Counted from the first letter of the stretch, positions 1 through 54,553 are shown. The stretch is 60,575 nucleotides of DNA from an uncultured Lachnospiraceae bacterium (GCA_944376745.1 CALWDR010000136.1:1-60575); one strand, 5' to 3'. A program made the numbers and translations. The notes: generated by a model not told the origin, from the sequence alone.

Positions 1-1344
1 ATCGATCCGCCCTATAATTCCAGACAGTATTGCGACCTGTATCACCTGTTAGAGAACGTAGCCCGCTGGGATAAACCGGAGGTGTTTGGGGTTGCCAGAA
101 AAATGGATCGGAGGGCGCTGAAAAGTGAATACTGTACACAAAAAGCCACAGCGGCTTTTGAAAAGCTTATAGATTCCGTTCATGCAAAGTATATCTTGCT
201 TTCCTACAACAATATGGAAGAAAAAGGCAATAGCCGTTCCAATGCGAAGATGAGCGATGAGGATATTATGCGCATATTAGAAAAGAAGGGAACGGTTAAG
301 GTGTTTGCGGAAGATTATAAGGCATTTTCCGCAGGCAAATCAGATATTAAAGAAAATCAGGAGAGATTGTTTCTGTGTACCTGCTATGAGGCTCAAAAAG
401 AGGTTATTCCTTCGCCCTTAAATTACACCGGAGGTAAATATAAGCTTCTGTCACAGATATTGCCGCTTTTTCCTAAGAGTGCGGATAAAGTGGTGGATCT
501 GTTTTGCGGCGGCTGCAATGTGGGCATTAATCTGAATTGTAGCAGCGTACAGTTTAATGATTCGAATGAATATTTAATGGGATTATTGAACGTCTTGAAA
601 CGATTGCCAAAGGAGGATATCTTTTCCTGGTTATTTGCGGCTATTCGGAAGTATGATCTTTCCCTTGTGAGCGAAAACGGATATGAATATTATGGCTGCG
701 ACAGTTCAAAAGGATTAGGAGCTTACAATAAACCACGATATCATAAGCTGCGAGATGATTTTAATAAAAAAGCAGAAAAAGACGATGAGTATTATCTCAT
801 GTTATATCTGTTGGTTGTGTATTCTTTTAATAACCAGCTTCGATTCAATAAAAAGGGTGAATTTAATCTGCCTGTGGGGAAACGTGATTTTAATTCCAGA
901 ATGCAGGAAAAATTAGAACGATTTCTTGATAGGATAAAAAGCGGTGATTACAGATTTACCAATTATGATTTCAGAGATGTGGATGTTGCAGATCATACGG
1001 AAAAAAGCTTTTTTTATGCAGATCCTCCGTATTTGATCACTTGTGCGACTTATAATGAGCAGGCAGGATGGACGGAAAAAGATGAAAAGGATTTATTGGC
1101 ATATTTAGAGGAATTGGATCGGAGGGGAATTCGGTTTGCCCTCTCCAATGTGCTGGAAAATAAAGGGAAGGAAAATGTGATACTGGCAGATTGGTTAAAA
1201 AGAAATAAAAGATTCAAGGTAATAAATCTTTCGTATGATTATTCAAATTCGAATTATCATACGAAGCGGGAAGGTGTAACAAGGGAAGTATTAGTGATAA
1301 ATTACGAAAAGGAGCTATGGGGATATGGGAAAAATAGGATTTAG
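1..1344 (+). CDS. DNA N6-adenine methyltransferase with two fused Dam-like (D12 class) domains; 5-prime partial, runs off the window
   Basis: Frame 1 is open from nt 1. It starts with IDPPYNSRQY (motif IV of an upstream domain) and later has ILLSYNN. The second, complete domain has NYTGGKYKLL, motif I DLFCGGCNVG and motif IV FFYADPPY. This FokI-methylase-like tandem layout is typical of type IIS systems. Its stop overlaps the next gene. Confidence 0.85.
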   Translation: MDPPYNSRQYCDLYHLLENVARWDKPEVFGVARKMDRRALKSEYCTQKATAAFEKLIDSVHAKYILLSYNNMEEKGNSRSNAKMSDEDIMRILEKKGTVKVFAEDYKAFSAGKSDIKENQERLFLCTCYEAQKEVIPSPLNYTGGKYKLLSQILPLFPKSADKVVDLFCGGCNVGINLNCSSVQFNDSNEYLMGLLNVLKRLPKEDIFSWLFAAIRKYDLSLVSENGYEYYGCDSSKGLGAYNKPRYHKLRDDFNKKAEKDDEYYLMLYLLVVYSFNNQLRFNKKGEFNLPVGKRDFNSRMQEKLERFLDRIKSGDYRFTNYDFRDVDVADHTEKSFFYADPPYLITCATYNEQAGWTEKDEKDLLAYLEELDRRGIRFALSNVLENKGKENVILADWLKRNKRFKVINLSYDYSNSNYHTKREGVTREVLVINYEKELWGYGKNRI

Positions 1345-3316
1345 AAGCTATTGTTGGGCGATTGGAACCACCAGCTATAGGACAGACAATTTTAATATGA
1401 GCATTGAGCAACAACTGGCGTTGCTGAAAGAATTCCGGGATGGGAATAAGGGCAGGATATGGAACGGGAACAATGCTTTTCAGACGGAGTATTATGAATT
1501 CTTAAAAAGCAGAAATTTTGTGAAGGGAGATGCGCCCAGACCGGATAAGGATGCGAGAGAAAAGACTTCCGGGTTGAGAGATATCGGACTATTGGATGAT
1601 GAGCGGAATATAACAGCGGCAGGAGAGGCGTTGCTTCGAATAGCGGAATCTGGGGATTTTTCCTCTGATAACTTATTGGAAATAGCAAAAGACAGTTATT
1701 TGTATTTCAAACAGCTGCTGAAGACAGCAAATGAGGTGGACGGAAAGATGGTCAGACCCTTTGTTGTGTTCTTGTATGTTATCAGCAGGCTGGACTATTT
1801 GACATATGATGAATTTACATATTTGTTGCCGTTGTGTGTGAATCAGGCAATTACAGATAAAATTATTGATTGTGTTATGTTGTTGAGAAGCGGCAGTTTG
1901 AGTTATGAGGATATCATTGTGTCAGTGCTGATGGATATGGAAAATTACCGGCAGGCACTGGAATTATTGCTGCAGAGTGAAACGGTGAATGAGGATTTGA
2001 TATGTGAAATAGGCATGAACCGTAAGAGTGCGAAATACGATAAGCCTTATTACCAGATTTATCTCTGCCTGCGGAAAATTGTATTGGATAAAGCTGATGT
2101 CACGCTGGACCTGTATGAGGCGACAAAAAAACTGACGAACAGCAAGGTCGGAAGCGCATGGAGAAAATATTTTTATAGAACCAATGCAAGAAACGTTATA
2201 AAACGGGAGGGAGCTTCGGTATTAAATAAAGTTCCTATATTAGAGGCGAATACGGAAGAAGCGTTTCGCAGGGAATTTTTCAGAATCATGCATTTGTTTA
2301 AGGCGAAAGCAACCCTTTCGGATTACTTCGATTTGAACAGGAGATATTTTAAGATCACGGACGTTGTTTTGTTTGAAGATAGTAAAGTAAAGCTGGATGT
2401 GCTTCCAAAATGTTATATCGAAGATATAGCGAAGAAATTACCGGTATTTGCTTTTGAAAAAACAGAATTATTAACGGAGGATGTGGAACTGGAAGAAATT
2501 CATCCTTGCCTGAGGATTGACACGAATAAGCTGTATCAGAAGCTTAGCAGAATTCTCGGCATAACAGTCACAAATAAAGAAACGGCCCGCAAGGTAATTA
2601 AGAGCGAGCGGTACGCTAGGTTTAACAGACTGATTGATGAAAGATTTGATAAGGATACGCTTATTTACTTGTTTCAATGCTTTGAGGATAGAAATGACGA
2701 GGATATACGAAATAGGGTTACGGATAACGCCGATATACCCACCATTTTTGAATATATCATTGGTATCGCATGGTATATCATCAGTGATAGAAAAGGCGAT
2801 GTTCTTGAATATATGAATCTGTCTTTGGAAGCGGATTTGTTGCCCAAGACGCACGCGGGTGGTGGTGAAGCGGATATTGTATGGCATTATGATAAAACAA
2901 AATGGTATCCTAAACATACTCTGTTGATAGAAGCTACATTAGCGGATGGAACGAATCAGCGTCGGATGGAGATGGAGCCGGTATCGAGACACTTGGGGGA
3001 TTATTGTCTGCTGCATCCGGAAGAGGCGGCTTATTGCATATTTGTGACAACTTTTCTTAACATAAATGTGATTTCGGATTTCAGAGCCAGAAAATCTATA
3101 CAATATTATAATTTGGCAGGTACGGAGTATATTACCGGGATGAAGATATTGCCGATACAGACTTCGGAATTGAAGACTATGTTAAGATTTGATGTAAAAT
3201 ATCCGCAGGTCTACAAAATGTTGGACAAGGCTTATAACAGCAACAAAGCGCCCAAAGAGTGGTATGAGGAAAATATTGTAAAAGAGACAGCTTTTTATAA
3301 CGGGCAGGAAATTTGA
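1325..3316 (+). CDS. Type IIS restriction endonuclease/nickase, AlwI-BstNBI-PleI-MlyI family
   Basis: The C-terminal region (FEYIIGIAWYII..LPKTHAGGGEADIVWHY..LLIEATLADGTNQRRMEMEPVSRHLGDY..AYCIFVTTFLN..ILPIQTSELKTML) matches, from memory, the N.BstNBI catalytic region (THAAGNQPDMEIIY..GEVTTSKGATQFKMESEPVTRHY). AAGGAG lies 10 nt upstream of the ATG. The gene overlaps the methylase gene by 20 nt. Confidence 0.8.
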   Translation: MGKIGFRSYCWAIGTTSYRTDNFNMSIEQQLALLKEFRDGNKGRIWNGNNAFQTEYYEFLKSRNFVKGDAPRPDKDAREKTSGLRDIGLLDDERNITAAGEALLRIAESGDFSSDNLLEIAKDSYLYFKQLLKTANEVDGKMVRPFVVFLYVISRLDYLTYDEFTYLLPLCVNQAITDKIIDCVMLLRSGSLSYEDIIVSVLMDMENYRQALELLLQSETVNEDLICEIGMNRKSAKYDKPYYQIYLCLRKIVLDKADVTLDLYEATKKLTNSKVGSAWRKYFYRTNARNVIKREGASVLNKVPILEANTEEAFRREFFRIMHLFKAKATLSDYFDLNRRYFKITDVVLFEDSKVKLDVLPKCYIEDIAKKLPVFAFEKTELLTEDVELEEIHPCLRIDTNKLYQKLSRILGITVTNKETARKVIKSERYARFNRLIDERFDKDTLIYLFQCFEDRNDEDIRNRVTDNADIPTIFEYIIGIAWYIISDRKGDVLEYMNLSLEADLLPKTHAGGGEADIVWHYDKTKWYPKHTLLIEATLADGTNQRRMEMEPVSRHLGDYCLLHPEEAAYCIFVTTFLNINVISDFRARKSIQYYNLAGTEYITGMKILPIQTSELKTMLRFDVKYPQVYKMLDKAYNSNKAPKEWYEENIVKETAFYNGQEI

Positions 3317-11201: not shown

Positions 11202-11340
11202 ATGAAAAGTAAGGAGCGCATAGAAAATTGTGCGGAAATCTGGCATTAGATATAGCAATTTGACGAAAAATGTACTATAATAGGAGACGAAAATCACAAT
11301 TTTGAAAATCCGGGGAGATTTTCCCTGGGGGAGGAAGAAA

Positions 11341-13557
11341 ATGAGTTCGTCTCAGGATACCACAGAAAAAAGAACGGGGAGCGAAACGGGGAAGCGGCAA
11401 AAAAGCCGTCCGGCGGGGCGCGCGTCAGCGCTGGGCTCGCTTCTGTATTTTCCGCTGCTGTTTGTCTACCTGGAAACCGTGTTTCATTTGTATATGGAGC
11501 TGAATATGAAGTACGCCCCGGTCTTTTTGGCCTTCGGCGCGGCGGCGGGACTGGTCTGCGCGCTGTTTGTCGGTGTGTGGCGGAGGCCTTTGAACCGCGT
11601 GCTGGCCTGGGTACTCAGCGTCCTTCTGTGCCTGCTTTTCTGTGTGGAGATGGTGTGTAAAACCGTCCTGGCTCAGTATTACCAGCTTTTGAGCGCGGCG
11701 GAGACGGCGGCGGGCAATCACCTGACCGACTATATGGACGCCATCACGGCGGGGATCGTGGATAATCTTCTGGGACTGTTTCTCATGCTGCTGCCCCTGG
11801 TGCTTCTGGGAGCCGCCGGGCCGCGGCTGTTCCGGTTTGAGACGAGGAGCTGGCGCGTGAACGTCCTGGTGGCCAGCTTTGCCGTTATCGTGCATTTGTT
11901 TGGCTTGCTTTTGCTGGAATTTCCCTGGAAGGGGGATATCGTGCCGGGGCAGCTTTATGCCACGGATACCCAGGTGGACGACCAGGTGGAGCAGCTTGGG
12001 CTGTTTACCATGCTGCGTCTGGATGTGAAGCATTCCCTGTTCGGGGTGTCCGGGGGCGTCATAGATGCCGGGAATTTTGAAGAGCTCCATGACGTTTTAA
12101 ACGGCGGCTCTGAGGCGCAGCCGCCCTCCGGCGCCCAGGGCGGACTGGGGAATCTGGGGCTTTCGGAGATCCCGGGCGGACCCGAAGGGGAAGAACCTTC
12201 CGGCGGACAGGGGACCGGGGAGGAACCGGAGGAGGAGCCGGTGGACACCTCTCCCAACGTGCTGGATGTGGATTTTGACGCCCTGATCGCCTCGGCGCCC
12301 AATGATGGAGTAAAATGGCTCCACCAGTATTTTCAGAGTACCACCCCCACCAACAAAAATGAGTATACCGGGATGTTTGAGGGTTACAACGTGATCTTTA
12401 TCACGGCGGAGGGCTTCACGGGCTATATGATCGATGAGGAGCTGACCCCCACGCTGTACAAGCTGAGCCACGAGGGCTTTGTGTTCAACAATTTTTACTC
12501 GCCCCTCCACTACACCAGCACCTCCGGCGGGGAATTCCGCAATCTCACCGGGCTGTACCCCAAGAGCGGGAATTATATCAGCATGAAGAAGGTGGGGACG
12601 GCGGGCCTGGATATGCATTTCTGCCTCGCCCAGCAGTTGAACCGCCTGGGTTACCGCTCCCTGGGGTTCCATGCCAACGGGAATATGTATGGCCGCCTGG
12701 CCTCCCACACCCAACTGGGCTATGAGTGGATCCAGAAGGGCACCGGATTTACCATGGAGACGGATGAGAGCGGCGCGGAGCTGTGGCCCCAGTCGGACCT
12801 GTATCTGATGGAGCAGACGGTGGACTCCTTCATCGGAGCGGAACAGCCCTTCAACGTGTATTATCTGACCATCAGCGGCCATATGCCCTACAATTTCTCG
12901 GGAAACAGGATGGCGGTCCGCAACCGTGAGGCGGTGGCGCATCTTCCCTACTCCGAGATCACCAAGTCATACGTCGCCGCCAATCTGGAGCTGGAGAAGG
13001 GGCTGACCTACCTTCTGGAGCGTCTGGAGGAGGCGGGGATCGCCGACAAGACCCTGCTGGTCCTGGCTCCCGACCACATTCCCTACGACGACCCGGATGT
13101 GATCGAGGAGCTGGCCGGGAAGACCTTTGGCGCCGGGGATGAGCTGGAGCAGATCAACGAGTCCGGCATTTCGGACTTTGACATTTACAAGAACACTCTG
13201 ATCGTCTGGTCCGCCAGCATGGAGGAGCCGGTGGTGGTGGACAAGGTGTGCGGCCAGGTGGACATCCTGCCCACGGTGTCCAACCTGCTGGGCCTTCCCT
13301 ACGATTCCCGGATGCTGGCGGGGACGGACGTGCTGTCGGACTCCTCGGCGGTGGTGATCTTCGCTTCCAGATGCTGGAAGACGGACAAGGGCTTTTACAA
13401 CCGCTATACGGAGACCTTCACCCCGGCGGCGGGCGTGTCCATGACCCCGGAGGAGCAGGCGGAGTACGTGGAGGCGGTGAAGCAGATCGTCCAGTATAAG
13501 CTCCAGGCCTCCCAGTGGGTGGTGGATTACGATTATTATCGGGTGGTGTTTGAGTGA
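11341..13557 (+). CDS. LTA synthase family protein (LtaS-like sulfatase-domain membrane protein)
   Basis: N-terminal TM block followed by a sulfatase domain (NVIFITAEGFTGY..TPTLYKL..GFVFNNFYSP..TISGHMPY..LAPDHIPY). GGGGGAGGAAG RBS precedes the ATG at 11341. Confidence 0.85.
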   Translation: MSSSQDTTEKRTGSETGKRQKSRPAGRASALGSLLYFPLLFVYLETVFHLYMELNMKYAPVFLAFGAAAGLVCALFVGVWRRPLNRVLAWVLSVLLCLLFCVEMVCKTVLAQYYQLLSAAETAAGNHLTDYMDAITAGIVDNLLGLFLMLLPLVLLGAAGPRLFRFETRSWRVNVLVASFAVIVHLFGLLLLEFPWKGDIVPGQLYATDTQVDDQVEQLGLFTMLRLDVKHSLFGVSGGVIDAGNFEELHDVLNGGSEAQPPSGAQGGLGNLGLSEIPGGPEGEEPSGGQGTGEEPEEEPVDTSPNVLDVDFDALIASAPNDGVKWLHQYFQSTTPTNKNEYTGMFEGYNVIFITAEGFTGYMIDEELTPTLYKLSHEGFVFNNFYSPLHYTSTSGGEFRNLTGLYPKSGNYISMKKVGTAGLDMHFCLAQQLNRLGYRSLGFHANGNMYGRLASHTQLGYEWIQKGTGFTMETDESGAELWPQSDLYLMEQTVDSFIGAEQPFNVYYLTISGHMPYNFSGNRMAVRNREAVAHLPYSEITKSYVAANLELEKGLTYLLERLEEAGIADKTLLVLAPDHIPYDDPDVIEELAGKTFGAGDELEQINESGISDFDIYKNTLIVWSASMEEPVVVDKVCGQVDILPTVSNLLGLPYDSRMLAGTDVLSDSSAVVIFASRCWKTDKGFYNRYTETFTPAAGVSMTPEEQAEYVEAVKQIVQYKLQASQWVVDYDYYRVVFE

Positions 13558-13571
13558 GAGAGGCACTTTAT

Positions 13572-13817
13572 ATGAAGCGTTTGGAGCCGGAAATCATTGA
13601 TTATTACGACAATGAAGTGATTGAAATGATAACTGAGAAATATGGATTCAGCCAGATGGATGCTCTGAAAGCATTTATAAGTTCCAAAACCCATGAAATG
13701 CTGGAAAATGAAGACTGTGGCATGACCGAGTTTGGGGCCGGGGCCATCTTTGAGATATGGGAGTGCGAAAGGGTAACCGGTGACCCAAGAAATTCGGTGT
13801 ATATAAGGGGGGAATAG
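13572..13817 (+). CDS. Hypothetical small protein (81 aa)
   Basis: The ORF has normal amino-acid composition and follows the LtaS-like gene. I recognise no family. Confidence 0.4.
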   Translation: MKRLEPEIIDYYDNEVIEMITEKYGFSQMDALKAFISSKTHEMLENEDCGMTEFGAGAIFEIWECERVTGDPRNSVYIRGE

Positions 13818-14139: not shown

Positions 14140-14247
14140 GTCACTAGTTGTCACTTCCCTCATCCTCTGAAAAAATCACTCTAACGGGAATTTTCGATAA
14201 AATCGCAAAATACATATTCCGCTGCAAAGACGAGTGTGGTACAATGA

Positions 14248-14319
14248 TACATGATTATAGGGTTCGCGAAGCGGTTCCTATAATACATGATTATAGGGTT
14301 CGCGAAGCGGTTCCTATAA
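14248..14319 (+). repeat. Two identical tandem copies of a 36-bp element (TACATGATTATAGGGTTCGCGAAGCGGTTCCTATAA) in the promoter/5-prime UTR of the GTPase-NYN gene
   Basis: The two copies, 14248-14283 and 14284-14319, are identical. Each has nested symmetry: TTATAGG...CCTATAA around the palindrome TTCGCGAA. Each ends in TATAAT. Two related copies lie at 53104-53181. Confidence 0.9.
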
Positions 14320-14355
14320 TATATGGTATGCAGAACACAGGAAAGAGGTCCATGG

Positions 14356-17214
14356 ATGAGCAGTACACCTGAAAATACCACCCAAAACCATATTTGCATC
14401 GGTCTTCTCGCCCATGTGGACGCGGGCAAGACCACACTGGCGGAGAGCTTTCTGTATCTTGGCGGCAAGCTGAGAAGGCTGGGCCGGGTGGACCATCGGG
14501 ATGCTTTTCTGGACACCCATGAGCTGGAGCGTTCCCGTGGGATCACCATTTTCTCCAAGCAGGCCCGGTTTCCTCTGGGGGAGAAGCAGGTGACGCTTCT
14601 GGATACGCCGGGGCATGTGGATTTTTCCGCGGAGATGGAGCGCACCCTGCAGGTGCTGGACTACGCCGTTCTCATCATCAGCGGCGCGGACGGCGTTCAG
14701 AGCCATGTGGAGACCCTGTGGAAGCTTCTGGGGCGGTATCGGGTACCGGTATTTTTGTTTGTCAATAAAATGGACCAGGAGGGAACCGACCAGGAGGCGC
14801 TTCTTGCGGAGCTGAAGACCAGACTGTCCGAGAACTGTCTGGATTTTTCCTGCCTGCCGGGCCGGGAGGCGGAGGGGGCAGAGCAATTTTACGAGAGCCT
14901 CGCTCTCTGCGACGAGGAAGCCATGGACTTTTATCTCAGCCACGGCAGCGTTGCCGATGGCCAGATCATCCGGCTGGTCAGGGAACGGAAGGTGTTTCCC
15001 TGCTATTTTGGCTCCGCCTTAAAGCTCTGGGGAGTGGACAGCTTTCTGGAGGGCCTGTCCCGGTTTACGGTGTGCCCCGTCTACCCGGAGGCTTTTGGGG
15101 CTCGGGTATTTAAAATATCCAGAGACAGCCAGGGCAGCCGCCTGACCCATCTTAAGATCACCGGCGGAAGGCTGCGGGTCAAGTCCCTTCTCACCGGTCC
15201 GGCGGGACAGTGGGAGGAGAAGGTGGACCAGATCCGCCTGTATTCCGGGGACTCCTATGAGACCGTCCAGGAGGTCGGGGCCGGGTGCGTCTGCGCGGTG
15301 ACCGGCCTGACGGAGACCTTTGCCGGGGAGGGACTGGGGGAGGAGCGGTCCGTGAATCTGCCCATTCTGGAGCCGGTGCTCACCTACCGTCTCCTGGTGC
15401 CTGAGGACTGTAATCTTCATACCCTGCTCCTGCAGCTGCGTCAGTTGGAAGAGGAGGAGCCCCTGCTGCGTGTTCTGTGGCAGGAGGAGCCGGGCGAGAT
15501 CCATGTGCAGTTGATGGGAGAGGTCCAGACGGAGGTCCTAAAGACGCTGATCTGGGAGCGCTTCGGCGTAAAGGTGGAATTTGGCCAGGGCAGCATTGTC
15601 TACAAGGAGACCATTTTGGAGCCCGTGGAGGGCGTGGGGCATTTTGAGCCTCTGCGCCATTATGCGGAGGTGCATCTTCTGCTGGAGCCGGGGGAGCCGG
15701 GCAGTGGCCTGGTCTTTTCCACCGCCTGCAGCGAGGAACTGCTGGACCGAAACTGGCAGCGGCTGGTGCTGACCCATCTGGAGGAAAAGAAACACCGGGG
15801 CGTGCTCACCGGCTCGGAGATCATCGATATGAAGATCACGCTGATCGCGGGCCGGGCGCACCTGAAGCACACCGAGGGCGGCGATTTCCGTCAAGCCACC
15901 TACCGGGCCCTGCGCCAGGGCCTTAAGATGGGAAAATGCCGCCTGCTGGAGCCGGTGTACGCCTACCGGCTGGAGGTGCCCTCCGAGCAGGTGGGCCGGG
16001 CCATGGCAGACATTCAGAAAATGTCCGGGACTTTCTCCGCGCCGGAGCCACGGGGAGAGCTGTCTCTTCTTAAGGGAACGGCCCCGGTAGCTGGAATGCA
16101 GGGCTATCAGAGGGAGGTCATGGCCTACACCGGAGGCCGGGGACGCCTTGCCTGCACCTTCAAGGGCTATGAGCCCTGTCACCAGGAGGAGGCGGTCATC
16201 GCGGCCATCGGCTACGATTCGGAGCGGGATCTGGAGAATCCCACAGGGTCTGTGTTCTGCGCCCACGGGGCGGGCTTTGTGGTGGAGTACGACAAGGTGT
16301 ACGACTACATGCATCTGGAGGGCCTGCTGGCCGGGAAAAAGCAGGAGTCTGCTAAGGAAGCCCGGGGGCCTGAAAGAACGGTGGTAAGCAGCTATAACCC
16401 CGAGCTTCACGACGAGAAGGAACTGGAGGCCATTTTCCGGCGGACCTACGGGGAGGTGCGCAGGGAGCGCAGAAGCTGGGCCAGGACGGTTGCGCCCCGG
16501 GAAAGCTCCGGCGGCGGGCCGGGATATGGCAGGTCCGGCGGCGGGCCGGGAACCGGCAGAGCCAATGCCGGCGGCAGGTCCGGCGGCGGGCCGGAAACCG
16601 GCAGAGCCAATGCCGGCGGGCAGAAGGGCGTTTCGGCATATGGGCCCGGCGGCAGGAAAAAGCAGGCGTCCGGGGAAGAGTATCTCCTGGTGGACGGCTA
16701 CAACATTATTTTTGGATGGGAAGAGCTGAATGAGCTTGCACGGGCCAGCATGGAGGCTGCCCGGGGCAGGCTGATGGATATTTTGTGCAATTATCAGGGT
16801 TACCGGAAAAATGTGGTGATCCTGGTCTTTGACGCCTACAAGGTGGAGGGCAATCCCGGCAGCAGCCAGAGCTACCACAACATTCATGTGGTGTACACGA
16901 AGGAGGCGGAGACCGCCGACGCGTATATCGAGAAGGTCACCCATGAGATCGGGCGCAGGCACAATGTCACGGTGGCAACCTCCGATGCCTTAGAGCAGGT
17001 GATCATCCTGGGGCAGGGGGCACGGCGCATGTCCGCCCAGGGGCTGAAGGAGGAGATCGAGGCCGCCAATATTGAGATCCGAAGGGATTTGGCGAAGGCG
17101 CCCGCGGGCGACAAAAATTATCTGTTCGAGCACATGTCCGGGGATGCGGCCCGGGAGCTTGAAAACCTTCGGTTAGGCTTAAAACAGGCAGAGGTGAAGA
17201 AATGCAGAGGATGA
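14356..17214 (+). CDS. TetM/EF-G-like translational GTPase fused to a C-terminal Rae1/YacP-type NYN endoribonuclease domain
   Basis: G1 AHVDAGKTT, G2 RGITI, G3 DTPGH, G4 NKMD and G5 GSALK, plus EF-G-like domains II-V. After a Gly-rich repeat linker comes YLLVDGYNIIF..VVILVFDAY..TKEAETADAYIEK..VTVATSDALEQVIILGQGARRMSA, which is colinear with B. subtilis YacP/Rae1. Start chosen at ATG 14356, 8 nt after GGAAAGAGG. Confidence 0.85.
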   Translation: MSSTPENTTQNHICIGLLAHVDAGKTTLAESFLYLGGKLRRLGRVDHRDAFLDTHELERSRGITIFSKQARFPLGEKQVTLLDTPGHVDFSAEMERTLQVLDYAVLIISGADGVQSHVETLWKLLGRYRVPVFLFVNKMDQEGTDQEALLAELKTRLSENCLDFSCLPGREAEGAEQFYESLALCDEEAMDFYLSHGSVADGQIIRLVRERKVFPCYFGSALKLWGVDSFLEGLSRFTVCPVYPEAFGARVFKISRDSQGSRLTHLKITGGRLRVKSLLTGPAGQWEEKVDQIRLYSGDSYETVQEVGAGCVCAVTGLTETFAGEGLGEERSVNLPILEPVLTYRLLVPEDCNLHTLLLQLRQLEEEEPLLRVLWQEEPGEIHVQLMGEVQTEVLKTLIWERFGVKVEFGQGSIVYKETILEPVEGVGHFEPLRHYAEVHLLLEPGEPGSGLVFSTACSEELLDRNWQRLVLTHLEEKKHRGVLTGSEIIDMKITLIAGRAHLKHTEGGDFRQATYRALRQGLKMGKCRLLEPVYAYRLEVPSEQVGRAMADIQKMSGTFSAPEPRGELSLLKGTAPVAGMQGYQREVMAYTGGRGRLACTFKGYEPCHQEEAVIAAIGYDSERDLENPTGSVFCAHGAGFVVEYDKVYDYMHLEGLLAGKKQESAKEARGPERTVVSSYNPELHDEKELEAIFRRTYGEVRRERRSWARTVAPRESSGGGPGYGRSGGGPGTGRANAGGRSGGGPETGRANAGGQKGVSAYGPGGRKKQASGEEYLLVDGYNIIFGWEELNELARASMEAARGRLMDILCNYQGYRKNVVILVFDAYKVEGNPGSSQSYHNIHVVYTKEAETADAYIEKVTHEIGRRHNVTVATSDALEQVIILGQGARRMSAQGLKEEIEAANIEIRRDLAKAPAGDKNYLFEHMSGDAARELENLRLGLKQAEVKKCRG
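16507..16620 (+). repeat. In-frame 45-bp tandem repeat (2 copies plus a partial) in the GTPase-NYN interdomain linker
   Basis: Copies 16531-16575 and 16576-16620 encode RSGGGPGTGRANAGG / RSGGGPETGRANAGG. Confidence 0.85.
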
Positions 17215-18551
17215 CTTATCTGATAGACAGTGAAAATGTCAACGACGCCTGGGTAAAGCTTTTGCCCAGGCTGGAACGGAAAGACAGGATTATTATTTTT
17301 TACACGGAAAACAGTCCCCATTTTACGGTGGACAGCGCCCGGATCATCACCGATTACAAGGATCGGGACATTTCCTGGAAAAAGTGCTTTGCGGGGAGAA
17401 ATGCCCTGGATTTCCAGCTTGTGTCCCATATGGGCTATCTGATCAGCAGATATCCCCGGGATACCTACGCCATCATGTCCAATGATACCGGCTTTGACGC
17501 GGCGGTAAAATACTGGACCCAGGAGGGCATCGCCGTCAGCCGGATAAGGGGCAACGGCAAGGCCGTCACCGGAAGCATGGCGGAGGCCGTGAAGGAGCGG
17601 CAGCATCTGGGAAATCCCCAGAACGGAGAGGAGACCGGCAGGGCGGCAGACCGGGGACGCCAGGCTTCCCTGCGGGCAGCGGAACACAGGACCTCGGAGC
17701 AAAAGCCGGCCCGGGATGGATGGCTTTCCAGATGGTTTTCCGCCAAAACGGAGCCGGAGGGCGAGATCACAGGCGAGACGGTGGAGGAAGCTCTGGCAAG
17801 CGAGGCCAGCCGAAAGCGGAGCAGGAATCGGAGAAGGCCGCGCCAAAACGGCAGAAGAAGCGGGACGGCAGAGCAGGAGCTTTATGGGACCAGGAGCCGG
17901 AAAGAAGGTACGGCAGAGCAGGAGTTCTCCGGGGCCGGGACAGACCAGGCGTTGAGCCGGGATGGCAGCCTGGCCGGGGACAGGCCGCAGAGGCCAGAAG
18001 AAGATCCCCAGTCTGGCAGTCAGGAGAACTCTCAGGGTGAGCGCAGCCAGGAGAACTCTCAGGGGGAGCACAGCCAGGAGAACTCTCAGGGGGAGCGCAG
18101 CCAGGAGAATTTTCAGAGTGAGCGCAGCCAGGAGAATTTTCGGGGAGAGCGCAGCGGGGAGATCCCGGTGGCCGCTGTCATCGGCCTGTGCCGTTCCATT
18201 CCCATCCGCAAGCAGGAGCGGATACACGAGGCTCTGGTGGCGCTTCTGGGCGGCGACAACGGCAGAGAGGTATACCATTTTCTCAAGGAGAACGGGGAAT
18301 TTCACGAAAAGCTGGGGACTATCTATCTGGCGGACAAGAACGCCCGCATAGACAACTACCTGAAAATCGTATTTGATTATAATCATATCAAGCTGGAGCA
18401 GTCGGAGGACATCATACGGCTGCTTGGCAAATACCAGTCCCGGGATCTGAACGGATTTTACAAGGCCATGACAGGGTGCTTTGGAAAAAGCAGAGGCTCC
18501 CAATACTACAGTATCTTAAAGCCCCACATCCGGGTGATAAAGAAGCTGTAA
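17202..18551 (+). CDS. NYN/LabA-like (PIN-fold) domain protein with a central SQENSQGER repeat and an unknown C-terminal domain
   Basis: The N-terminus YLIDSENV..AGRNALDFQLVSHMGYL..YAIMSNDTGFDAAVKYWTQEGIAV fits the NYN/LabA pattern (D-x-E-N, N-A-x-D, S-x-D-x-x-F). The gene overlaps the upstream gene by 13 nt. Confidence 0.7.
   Translation: MQRMTYLIDSENVNDAWVKLLPRLERKDRIIIFYTENSPHFTVDSARIITDYKDRDISWKKCFAGRNALDFQLVSHMGYLISRYPRDTYAIMSNDTGFDAAVKYWTQEGIAVSRIRGNGKAVTGSMAEAVKERQHLGNPQNGEETGRAADRGRQASLRAAEHRTSEQKPARDGWLSRWFSAKTEPEGEITGETVEEALASEASRKRSRNRRRPRQNGRRSGTAEQELYGTRSRKEGTAEQEFSGAGTDQALSRDGSLAGDRPQRPEEDPQSGSQENSQGERSQENSQGEHSQENSQGERSQENFQSERSQENFRGERSGEIPVAAVIGLCRSIPIRKQERIHEALVALLGGDNGREVYHFLKENGEFHEKLGTIYLADKNARIDNYLKIVFDYNHIKLEQSEDIIRLLGKYQSRDLNGFYKAMTGCFGKSRGSQYYSILKPHIRVIKKL
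18018..18161 (+). repeat. In-frame 27-bp tandem repeat, about 5.3 copies (SQENSQGER units)
   Basis: Units start at 18018, 18045, 18072, 18099 and 18126, with the partial sixth unit at 18153. The consensus unit is AGCCAGGAGAACTCTCAGGGGGAGCGC. Confidence 0.9.
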
Positions 18552-18672: not shown

Positions 18673-18780
18673 CTTTGGCCGTCCCTGGGAAGTAATGACA
18701 ATGGGAGCTTCCGCTTCGGCTGTTCGGTGATGGCTTTGGCCGTCCCTAGGAAGTAATGACAATGGGAGCTTCCGCCTCGG
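18672..18780. repeat. Tandem duplication (61-bp period, 48-bp conserved core, 2 copies) spanning the stop codon of the SecB-like gene
   Basis: Cores at 18672-18719 and 18733-18780 differ at 2 of 48 positions. In the downstream copy the stop TAG is TGG. Confidence 0.85.
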
Positions 18781-19162
18781 GCGTCTCCCGGTAGTCCAGC
18801 TGCGGATTGGGCAGCCGCAGGTTCAGGCCCATGGCGGCGGAAACGCTGCGGATCTTTTCATTGACTGCCATCATCAGGATGGGCAGGTACTGGGTCTTCA
18901 GCACGTCGTCCAGATTGTCCACGAAGGTGCTGGCCACAGCCAGGGTCATGGTCTCCACCTCGAAGGACAGATTCTTCTCCTCGTCGCCGGCGGTGATCTT
19001 CACAAGGGCCATGGCCGTGGTGGGAGCGGCGGGATTGGTCTTCACGCTGACCTGGGATTTCACGGTCATTTTCAAGGGCTGTCCGGCCTTCTGGCGGAAG
19101 GTGTTATTGTAAGAGATCGACTTGATCTCCGGTGGGTTTAAGGTGATTTTTGCTGTTTTCAT
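18746..19162 (-). CDS. SecB-like chaperone family protein
   Basis: By eye it is colinear with E. coli SecB: IKSISYNN vs TKDISFEAPN, a beta-strand-like middle, and YLPILMMAVNEKIRSVSAAMGLNLRLPNP vs [32 protein letters not shown]. GGAGG RBS is present. Confidence 0.55.
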   Translation of the reverse strand: MKTAKITLNPPEIKSISYNNTFRQKAGQPLKMTVKSQVSVKTNPAAPTTAMALVKITAGDEEKNLSFEVETMTLAVASTFVDNLDDVLKTQYLPILMMAVNEKIRSVSAAMGLNLRLPNPQLDYRETPEAEAPIVITS

Positions 19163-54481: not shown

Positions 54482-54553
54482 TGGCCCATCGCCAAACGGT
54501 AAGGCAACGGACTCTGACTCCGTCATTTCAAGGTTCGAATCCTTGTGGGCCAG
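54482..54553 (+). tRNA. tRNA-Gln (anticodon CTG), CCA not encoded
   Basis: Folded by hand. Acceptor TGGCCCA/TGGGCCA with U1-A72. 3-bp D stem GCC/GGC. Anticodon stem ACGGA/TCCGT with loop CTCTGAC. T arm CAAGG-TTCGAAT-CCTTG. Discriminator G. Confidence 0.9.

Follow-up and report, generated by a model that had tools for sequence, protein, structure and literature searches.

A translational GTPase and a Rae1-type nuclease in one reading frame

The stretch of DNA analysed here (the window) comprises 60,575 nucleotides from an uncultured Lachnospiraceae bacterium (GCA_944376745.1, CALWDR010000136.1:1-60575), and the gene with which we are concerned encodes a predicted translational GTPase joined to a nuclease domain of the Rae1/YacP NYN family (Table 1). 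A first reading, made from the sequence alone, had described one uninterrupted frame of 952 codons, and the Shine-Dalgarno sequence, the stop codon (TGA, 17212-17214) and the alignment of homologs agree on that frame. An alternative in-frame ATG at 14323 would yield a protein of 963 residues; the ATG at 14356 is the likely start because the Shine-Dalgarno sequence GGAAAGAGG precedes it and because homologs align from there. The end of the fusion gene overlaps a gene for a protein with a PIN_7 domain, and a convergent open reading frame (ORF) follows.

Table 1. Features of the fusion gene and its immediate surroundings; positions are counted from the first letter of the window.
Feature	Position	Strand	Basis or remark
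Tandem repeat of a 36-bp unit (2.2 copies), 5' leader of the fusion gene	14247..14325	+	Tandem Repeats Finder (TRF) and sequence
Shine-Dalgarno sequence GGAAAGAGG	14340..14348	+	7 nt 5' of ATG 14356
GTPase-Rae1 fusion gene	14356..17214	+	952 aa, single unbroken frame
G domain, residues 11-236	14386..15063	+	Pfam GTP_EFTU, E 4e-46
EF-G domains II (residues 248-325) and III (residues 339-410)	15097..15585	+	Pfam, AlphaFold2, Foldseek
EF-G domain IV, residues 413-525	15592..15930	+	Pfam, conservation
EF-G domain V, residues 529-611	15940..16188	+	Pfam EFG_C, E 1.5e-19
Family-specific structured C-terminal extension of the GTPase, residues 608-655	16177..16320	+	Alignments, AlphaFold2
Disordered tether, residues 656-774	16321..16677	+	AlphaFold2 predicted local distance difference test (pLDDT) <50 except helix 687-698
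Complete Rae1/YacP NYN nuclease domain, residues 777-939	16684..17172	+	Pfam NYN_YacP, E 7e-52
Downstream gene, 449 aa	17202..18551	+	Overlaps the fusion stop by 13 nt
PIN_7 domain of the downstream gene	17220-17528	+	PF18475, 96.9 bits against a cutoff of 34
27-bp repeat, 5.4 copies, within the disordered linker (about 200 aa) of the PIN_7 protein	18016-18162	+	TRF, structure model
Conserved eight-helix C-terminal domain of the PIN_7 protein	18168-18545	+	Confident structure prediction
Convergent ORF, 138 aa	18746..19162	-	Nothing matched in Pfam, NCBIfam, PADLOC or PDB

The first 607 residues of the protein are predicted to form a complete and catalytically competent translational GTPase of the EF-G/EF2 type. 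The Pfam models GTP_EFTU, EFG_III, EFG_IV and EFG_C all score above cutoff, and EF-G_D2 falls short by 0.7 bit (26.3 against 27 bits). The motifs G1 (AHVDAGKTT), G2 (RGITI), G3 (DTPGH, with the catalytic His87), G4 (NKMD) and G5 (GSAL) are all present in a G domain that has no G' insertion. In the comparison from which our conservation figures derive, which consists of the window sequence and 75 sequences from other species (76 in all; 51-62% identity), G1-G5 and His87 are invariant in 76 of 76; all motifs quoted in the sequence-only reading, those of the NYN domain included, are present and likewise invariant in 60 close homologs. An AlphaFold2 model built from 60 homologs is confident over domains I-V (residues 11-607), and the best matches of this model in the PDB, as found with Foldseek, are EF-G structures (E 5e-52). 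Pfam, AlphaFold2 and Foldseek thus agree with the sequence-only reading that G1-G5 and EF-G-like domains II-V are present, with EF-G_D2 marginal.

Conservation is highest in domain IV, with a mean identity of 80% across species; the corresponding values lie at 58-66% for the NYN domain, the G domain, the C-terminal extension and domains II, III and V. Both loops at the tip of domain IV are nearly invariant: GHFEPLRHYAEV, in which positions 15646-15669 code for EPLRHYAE, and AHxKHTEGGDFR, in which positions 15868-15891 code for HTEGGDFR. EPLRHYAE and HTEGGDFR, which were chosen by a scan of the locus as the two most conserved peptides of the family, correspond by alignment to EF-G to loop I and loop III of the tip, respectively. 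Factors of the EF-G family bind the ribosomal factor site in their GTP form with domain IV inserted into the 30S subunit's A site, and it is the tip of domain IV, in EF-G as in Tet(M), that enters this site. That domain IV and its tip loops are the most constrained parts of the protein speaks in favour of a specific contact at the decoding centre. Nor is the GTPase half a decaying relic: no feature of the protein is more constrained than the tip that probes the A site.

The nuclease half is likewise complete. NYN_YacP (PF05991) matches with 176.2 bits against a cutoff of 24.6, over positions 1-165 of the 166 in the model; the domain is 46% identical to Bacillus subtilis Rae1 over 128 residues, matches the sequences of the Rae1/YacP crystal structures 5MQ8 and 5MQ9 (E 1.6e-27), and is modelled confidently by AlphaFold2 over residues 775-913. 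Asp780, Asp826, Glu852, Asp855 and Asp877 of the fusion align with B. subtilis Asp7, Asp53, Glu78, Asp81 and Asp104, so that all five acids have equivalents, and Asp780, Asp826, Asp855 and Asp877 are invariant in 76 of 76 sequences. For comparison, the published catalytically inactive mutant of Rae1 carries D7N and D81N (PMC10351889). A C-terminal NYN_YacP/Rae1 domain that keeps its catalytic acids, as originally proposed, is therefore upheld by the Pfam match, the crystal-structure match and the residue alignment, and these comparisons support the view that both enzymatic centres of the fusion are intact and under strong purifying selection.

Between the two halves lie a structured segment and a disordered one. 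The 48-residue C-terminal extension of the GTPase is without counterpart in Tet(O), and is present in an unfused homolog from Ligilactobacillus; its conserved residues Cys608, His609, Cys635, His637 and His653 form a pattern that could be a metal-binding site. Beyond it, the AlphaFold2 model is disordered at residues 661-686 and 702-771, which are split by a short helix at 687-698. This tether has no Pfam match, its mean identity is only 21%, and its length ranges from 67 to 139 residues across species and from 72 to 146 in a closer set. Its sole conserved feature is HDEKELEAIFRRTYG..ERxxW (16411-16485; consensus HDEKELEAIFxRTYG..ERxxW), which is the lone helix of the model. Such disorder, variation in length and low conservation are what one would expect of a leash, not of a rigid connector. 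The repeat that the sequence-only reading had placed at 16507-16620 is real: TRF locates it at 16507-16619, in frame, as a Gly/Arg-rich and lineage-specific element whose units of 27 and 45 bp are multiples of three.

Could such a repeat have created the fusion during assembly? A scan with one genome per species finds the family in at least 599 species genomes, and among the 80 species-level loci returned from these (51-62% identical to the window) the frame from GTPase to NYN domain is unbroken in 80 of 80; five seeming internal stops are alignment overruns at gene ends. The fused architecture is also found in all of the 120 best homologs (60-83% identity), and the length of the fusion (830-1000 aa) is shared by almost every one of the 150 top representatives at 50% identity. 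An artefact of assembly is excluded by the 80 unbroken loci, the in-frame repeats and the conserved motif inside the linker; the fusion is genuine and widespread. Its hosts are mostly Lachnospiraceae, namely Blautia, Roseburia, Dorea, Mediterraneibacter, Marvinbryantia, Herbinix and Acetatifactor, and further hosts are Flavonifractor, Intestinimonas, Anaerotruncus, Desulfitobacterium, Desulfosporosinus and Anaerovorax. The family is very common in dominant Clostridia of the human gut (Blautia, Roseburia, Dorea, Mediterraneibacter and Flavonifractor), and its broad, vertical and syntenic inheritance fits a core cellular function.

The architecture itself is already known. The combination of a TetM-like GTPase with NYN_YacP was noted by Atkinson 2015 (PMC4342817) and by Matelska et al. 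2017 (PMC5499597), whose reports covered about ten species of Clostridiales and assigned it no role, with tetracycline resistance as a query. The window protein is a member of their family. What is new here is its breadth (the at least 599 species given above), the rejection of the Tet assignment, and the functional frame that the Rae1 literature of 2017-2026 provides. The sequence-only reading knew of no described function for this architecture, and the literature we searched contains no functional study of the fusion.

A tethered Rae1 at the ribosome: a proposed mechanism

How might the fused nuclease find its substrate? Rae1 cuts mRNA only on translating ribosomes, and its cleavage feeds trans-translation. 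The sequence-only reading had started from Rae1 as an A-site endonuclease, a model since revised by the laboratory that had proposed it: the cut lies at the tail of a stalled ribosome, 12 nt upstream of its A-site codon (PMC12407103). According to a September 2026 preprint, Rae1 acts on collided ribosomes and makes truncated mRNAs for tmRNA (PMC13622287). Neither of these two papers mentions the GTPase fusion. The conservation survey in the preprint identified Rae1 by hmmsearch with no length filter, so that fused proteins would count as Rae1, and counts of "Rae1 conservation" made in this way silently pool the fused and free forms. Through the work of 2025-2026 Rae1 has become central to the rescue of stalled and collided ribosomes in Gram-positive bacteria, and a natural protein in which Rae1 is joined to a GTPase offers a clue to the way Rae1 reaches ribosomes as well as a means of studying it.

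The fused NYN domain, as a close, full-length homolog, probably shares with Rae1 its chemistry and its kind of substrate, mRNA on stalled ribosomes. The two proteins differ in their setting. Rae1 of B. subtilis is a free single domain of about 170 residues, encoded after yacO in the gltX...sigH operon, with yacP between yacO and sigH (Matelska 2017, PMC5499597), whereas the fused domain is covalently tethered to a GTPase of 655 residues, a putative built-in docking module, and its gene stands alone elsewhere in the chromosome; in the vicinity of 94 fusion loci there is no cysS, mrnC, yacO or sigH. In Roseburia-type loci (L009-L012), yacO leads directly into sigH within a cysE-cysS-mrnC-yacO-sigH operon, and no NYN homolog is found there with either the NYN domain of the window or B. 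subtilis Rae1 as query. A metagenome scan with the Roseburia-type YacO returned 80 loci (L095-L174), 65 of which hold both yacO and sigH, and in all 65 the gap between the two genes is at most 281 nt and contains no NYN gene, a result that covers the standard place of yacP in the operon, within one narrow clade whose YacO identities are 80% or more. Roseburia metagenome-assembled genomes also carry the fusion (L027, L060 and L072), and the empty yacP slot together with this presence is consistent with the fused form having taken the place of free Rae1. The fused protein is probably the working Rae1 of Lachnospiraceae and other Clostridia rather than an accessory or defence gene.

We favour, with confidence somewhat better than even, the reading that the fusion is an mRNA endonuclease associated with ribosomes, whose Rae1-type NYN domain is permanently attached to a ribosome-docking module of its own. 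First, the GTPase module would recognise a particular state of the ribosome, most likely a stalled or collided one with an accessible A site. Second, GTP-dependent docking would concentrate the NYN domain locally around the mRNA, either at the entry channel or where one ribosome meets its neighbour. Third, the NYN domain would cut the mRNA there, and hydrolysis of GTP would then release the factor. In the clade of the window, the translationally coupled PIN_7 protein would be a lineage-specific addition. Delivery of a nuclease to ribosomes under guidance of the GTPase, as the sequence-only reading had suggested, thus survives as the most economical account of a protein in which both centres appear intact; the premise of A-site cleavage on which it had been built does not.

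Several points weigh against this proposal. Rae1, by the revised model, cuts on the side of the stalled ribosome from which mRNA exits, while the factor site faces the side of entry, and the geometry would be easy only if the GTPase sat on the trailing ribosome or if the tether spanned the 30S subunit. In a disome the mRNA exit adjoins the channel by which mRNA enters the trailing ribosome, and the simplest arrangement would place the GTPase on that ribosome. Furthermore, each element of the mechanism (ribosome binding, GTPase activity, RNA cleavage and the substrate) is carried over from homologs. Unfused members of the GTPase subfamily exist, as described below, which implies that the GTPase has some function of its own. 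Finally, the evidence for replacement of Rae1 concerns the canonical slot in one narrow clade, and a free copy could lie elsewhere in those genomes.

The proposed fusion mechanism would have functional analogs in other systems, namely SmrB of Escherichia coli and Cue2/NONU-1, nucleases that sense collisions or stalls, and, in eukaryotic no-go decay, the GTPase system Hbs1-Dom34: mRNA is cut by a nuclease where ribosomes stall or collide, and the A site is probed by a translational GTPase. The resemblance would be one of function only. The fusion has no homology to the SMR nucleases, and those systems divide sensing and cleavage between different proteins where the fusion has a single polypeptide.

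A more far-reaching version of this proposal, which we put forward tentatively and hold to be less likely than not, is that the fusion has replaced standalone Rae1 in Lachnospiraceae and many other Clostridia as a no-go decay machine in a single polypeptide. The domain IV tip, invariant and remodelled, would read the state of the A site on a stalled or collided ribosome, docking of the GTP form would license a cut at the entry channel or in the gap between ribosomes, and hydrolysis would reset the factor. By Rosetta-stone logic, the unfused GTPases would then be partners that act in trans with Rae1 in other Firmicutes, and PIN_7 would be a second nuclease of the pathway. What ties PIN_7 to the pathway in this scheme is that its gene overlaps the fusion gene in one clade and adjoins the yacP-less cysS-mrnC-yacO-sigH operon in another.

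Might the target be stable RNA rather than mRNA? A factor that docks on ribosomes or pre-ribosomes through its GTPase, and whose NYN domain processes or cleaves rRNA or tRNA, in maturation, quality control or the turnover of ribosomes, is improbable in our judgement, although it is the likeliest of the three rivals. A role in rRNA or tRNA maturation was once predicted for NYN_YacP from the proximity of yacP to mrnC (Mini-III) and yacO (an rRNA methyltransferase) (PMC5499597, PMC4342817), the mrnC-yacO context is visible in the Roseburia-type loci L009-L012, and a GTPase at the factor site would bring the nuclease beside rRNA as well as mRNA. However, every Rae1 experiment points to translation-dependent cleavage of mRNA, with no role in rRNA processing (PMC13622287, PMC12407103, PMC10351889), and the fused domain is a close relative of Rae1 (46%, full length) with the same catalytic set.

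Kinship with Tet proteins and EF-G

Many copies of the fusion are named "tetracycline resistance ribosomal protection protein" in the databases, and a likeness to Tet(M) and Tet(O) does exist. The fusion shares their five-domain, EF-G-like layout without the G' insertion and is colinear with them over about 600 residues in one stretch, and it presumably shares their binding site on the ribosome. The best NCBIfam model is tet_protect (NF012153), yet its score of 399.2 bits is about half of the cutoff of 775; the Tet(M/W/O/S) model gives 249.6 bits against a cutoff of 1100. The GTPase is 28.5% identical to Tet(O) (about 28% for genuine Tet(O)/Tet(W)), and its C-terminal extension is different and longer. 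Loop III of domain IV displaces tetracycline and is functionally the most important loop of Tet(M) (PMC4750697). In this loop (YYSPVS) Tet(O) has YYSPVSTPADFR, where the fusion family has the invariant AHLKHTEGGDFR instead; the alignment of the loop also reads YGLYYSPVSTPADFR in Tet(O) against AGRAHLKHTEGGDFR, likewise invariant, in the family.

Membership among the ribosomal protection proteins of the Tet type is rejected on the curated score, the identity and the replaced loop III. That the fusion is nonetheless a target-protection protein of the Tet(M)/Tet(O) type which has gained an auxiliary RNase, a possibility suggested by Atkinson 2015 (PMC4342817) and implied by the many entries assigned to the TetM/TetW/TetO/TetS family, we consider very unlikely, for beyond the sequence differences the gene is distributed like a core chromosomal gene, vertically inherited in the species surveyed and not carried on small mobile elements, and has a nuclease attached. 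The sole matches in plasmid collections are replicons of 252 and 518 kb, and origin from a plasmid or small mobile element is rejected. The name given to many copies of the fusion is probably wrong, and this matters for resistome surveys.

Is the GTPase then an EF-G? It resembles EF-G in G1-G5, in domains II-V and in overall fold, but the two align in two stretches that skip G', a subdomain that the fusion does not have. Loop I of EF-G contains a GGRGQYG insertion, where the fusion has a loop shortened to GHFEPLRHY, and loop III differs as well. The EF-G equivalog model TIGR00484 scores 285.8 bits against a cutoff of 659.4. The protein is accordingly not EF-G proper, and judging from these differences it is unlikely to act as a translocase. 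The description "EF-G/TetM-like" in the sequence-only reading holds for an EF-G-like protein colinear with Tet, and fails if taken to mean a tetracycline-protection protein.

The subfamily also has unfused members. A 639-residue protein encoded on a megaplasmid of Ligilactobacillus salivarius (NZ_CP101686.1; locus L094, 4019-5938) is about 48-51% identical, has the same domain IV loop and the same C-terminal extension, and has no NYN gene nearby. It is annotated as a TetM/TetW/TetO/TetS resistance protein, an annotation that is probably wrong and that again bears on resistome surveys. A few more unfused representatives of 642-706 aa occur among the 150 best described above. By sequence, the GTPase of the fusion is a member of its own subfamily of EF-G/Tet-like factors.

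The PIN_7 companion and the surroundings of the fusion gene

The gene that follows starts at 17202, within the fusion gene that ends at 17214, which confirms the 13-nt overlap originally noted, and it has a Shine-Dalgarno-like sequence of its own. Its N-terminal domain had been read as NYN/LabA; this family (PF01936) scores 18.3 bits, below its cutoff of 24.2, and the domain is instead PIN_7, a family that was also defined by Matelska 2017 (PMC5499597), matched over positions 1-103 of 103. PIN_7 residues Asp9, Glu11, Asp70, Asp95 and Asp99 are invariant in 51 homologs, the domain bears a weak structural likeness to the NYN domain of Marf1, and both end domains of the protein are conserved in the 51 homologs down to 30% identity. 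The C-terminal domain has no match in Pfam, nor any in the PDB at E<=1e-3. The repeat in the disordered linker codes for units resembling SQENSQGER, and in-frame expansions of low-complexity repeats thus occur in the linkers of both paired genes.

How general is the pairing? PIN_7 adjoins the fusion only in the window and in loci L006, L007, L008, L175, L176 and L177; all PIN_7 homologs tested in the 38-63% identity range (L006, L007, L008, L175 and L176/L177) are encoded in this overlapping arrangement. These loci share the block fusion - PIN_7 - DUF2975 - HTH_26 - DUF6688, which indicates that the pair is long-lived within one uncultured Lachnospiraceae clade. Beyond this clade it is absent: PIN_7 lies next to the fusion in none of the 80 species-representative loci, nor in L001-L005, though their fusion proteins show much the same degree of similarity (GTPase part, 66-72%). 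In L003, for example, the fusion gene is followed directly by DUF2975 and HTH_26, with no PIN_7 between. PIN_7 proteins that share this architecture at 28-31% identity (the Roseburia hominis type) are more distant, and their genes lie downstream of cysE-cysS-mrnC-yacO-sigH-thiC, although after thiC in only seven of the 36 loci long enough to show this. The two-gene module of the sequence-only reading is therefore real in one clade and is not general: PIN_7 is a clade-specific companion, and the fusion gene is essentially free-standing.

Other neighbours of the fusion gene recur no better. Unbiased clustering of neighbouring genes yields no family that exceeds 15 of the 89 loci. GreA comes after the fusion gene in ten of 89; gltX adjoins it in two of 94, and so does an ABCF gene. 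The lack of a recurrent neighbour, together with the syntenic chromosomal block, fits a free-standing core gene. ABC-F proteins are a class of ribosome-binding factors, and the one in question (516 aa; ABC_tran - ABC_tran_Xtn - ABC_tran) is encoded 181 nt upstream of the fusion gene, at 1458-3008 in L008 and 467-2017 in L175; as it occurs in only these two loci, the association may be due to chance.

To a toxin-like, abortive-infection or defence module whose two nucleases (GTPase-NYN and PIN_7) shut down translation upon phage infection or stress, one of the candidates of the sequence-only reading, we give almost no credence: the overlapping genes for two predicted nucleases, the stability of the pair in its clade, and the presence of a PDC-M13B protein and a restriction-modification pair no more than 14 kb upstream would suit it, but the fusion, the PIN_7 protein and the 138-aa ORF match zero PADLOC families and nothing useful in PHROGs, PIN_7 is missing beside the fusion in the 80 species representatives, no antitoxin-like or immunity partner is conserved, and the gene is conserved by vertical descent over a broad range of species, in syntenic surroundings of a housekeeping kind, with a neighbourhood that varies across loci and is not island-like. 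Phage origin is also rejected. Two GenBank records from human faeces that contain the fusion are labelled "UNVERIFIED: Bacteriophage sp." (MT835563.1, L178; MT835514.1, L179), and the second is a fragment of bacterial chromosome misfiled as phage, because it encodes AddAB, FeoB, a Glu/Gln-tRNA synthetase and a DinG-type helicase.

The leader of the fusion gene contains a tandem repeat whose unit is palindromic (TATAGG...CCTATA) and which folds as a long hairpin (-38.3 kcal/mol, z -4.3). The repeat and hairpin are otherwise found only in the closest relative, L006, and are thus specific to this lineage, in which the hairpin may serve as a regulatory element. Just 5' of the repeat, at 14237-14245, lies TGgTACAAT, an extended -10-like sequence and putative promoter element. 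The single Rfam match over the window is a tRNA at 54482-54553, and none is near the fusion gene.

The convergent ORF accompanies the fusion-PIN_7 pair only in the two closest relatives and is probably not part of the system. It had been called SecB-like, a likeness that finds no support by sequence in Pfam or among PDB sequences at E<=10. The last bases of this ORF (18739-18781, minus strand) are one copy of a direct repeat of about 43 bp, the other copy of which (18678-18720) is intergenic and lies about 60 nt away.

Finally, we note two features upstream. The ORF with the PADLOC match (PDC-M13B, a candidate-defence component, E 3e-36) encodes 87 aa at 13554-13817, has no Pfam match and overlaps the end of a sulfatase-family gene (11302-13557); it has a homolog in L006, near genes for DUF3990 and DUF3791. 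At the start of the window, an island of low G+C content (0.38-0.40, against about 0.57 elsewhere) spans 82-3316 and extends to about 4000; it encodes a D12-class N6-adenine DNA methyltransferase (82-1344) and, at 1325-3316, a restriction endonuclease of the AlwI family, and looks like an acquired type II restriction-modification system.

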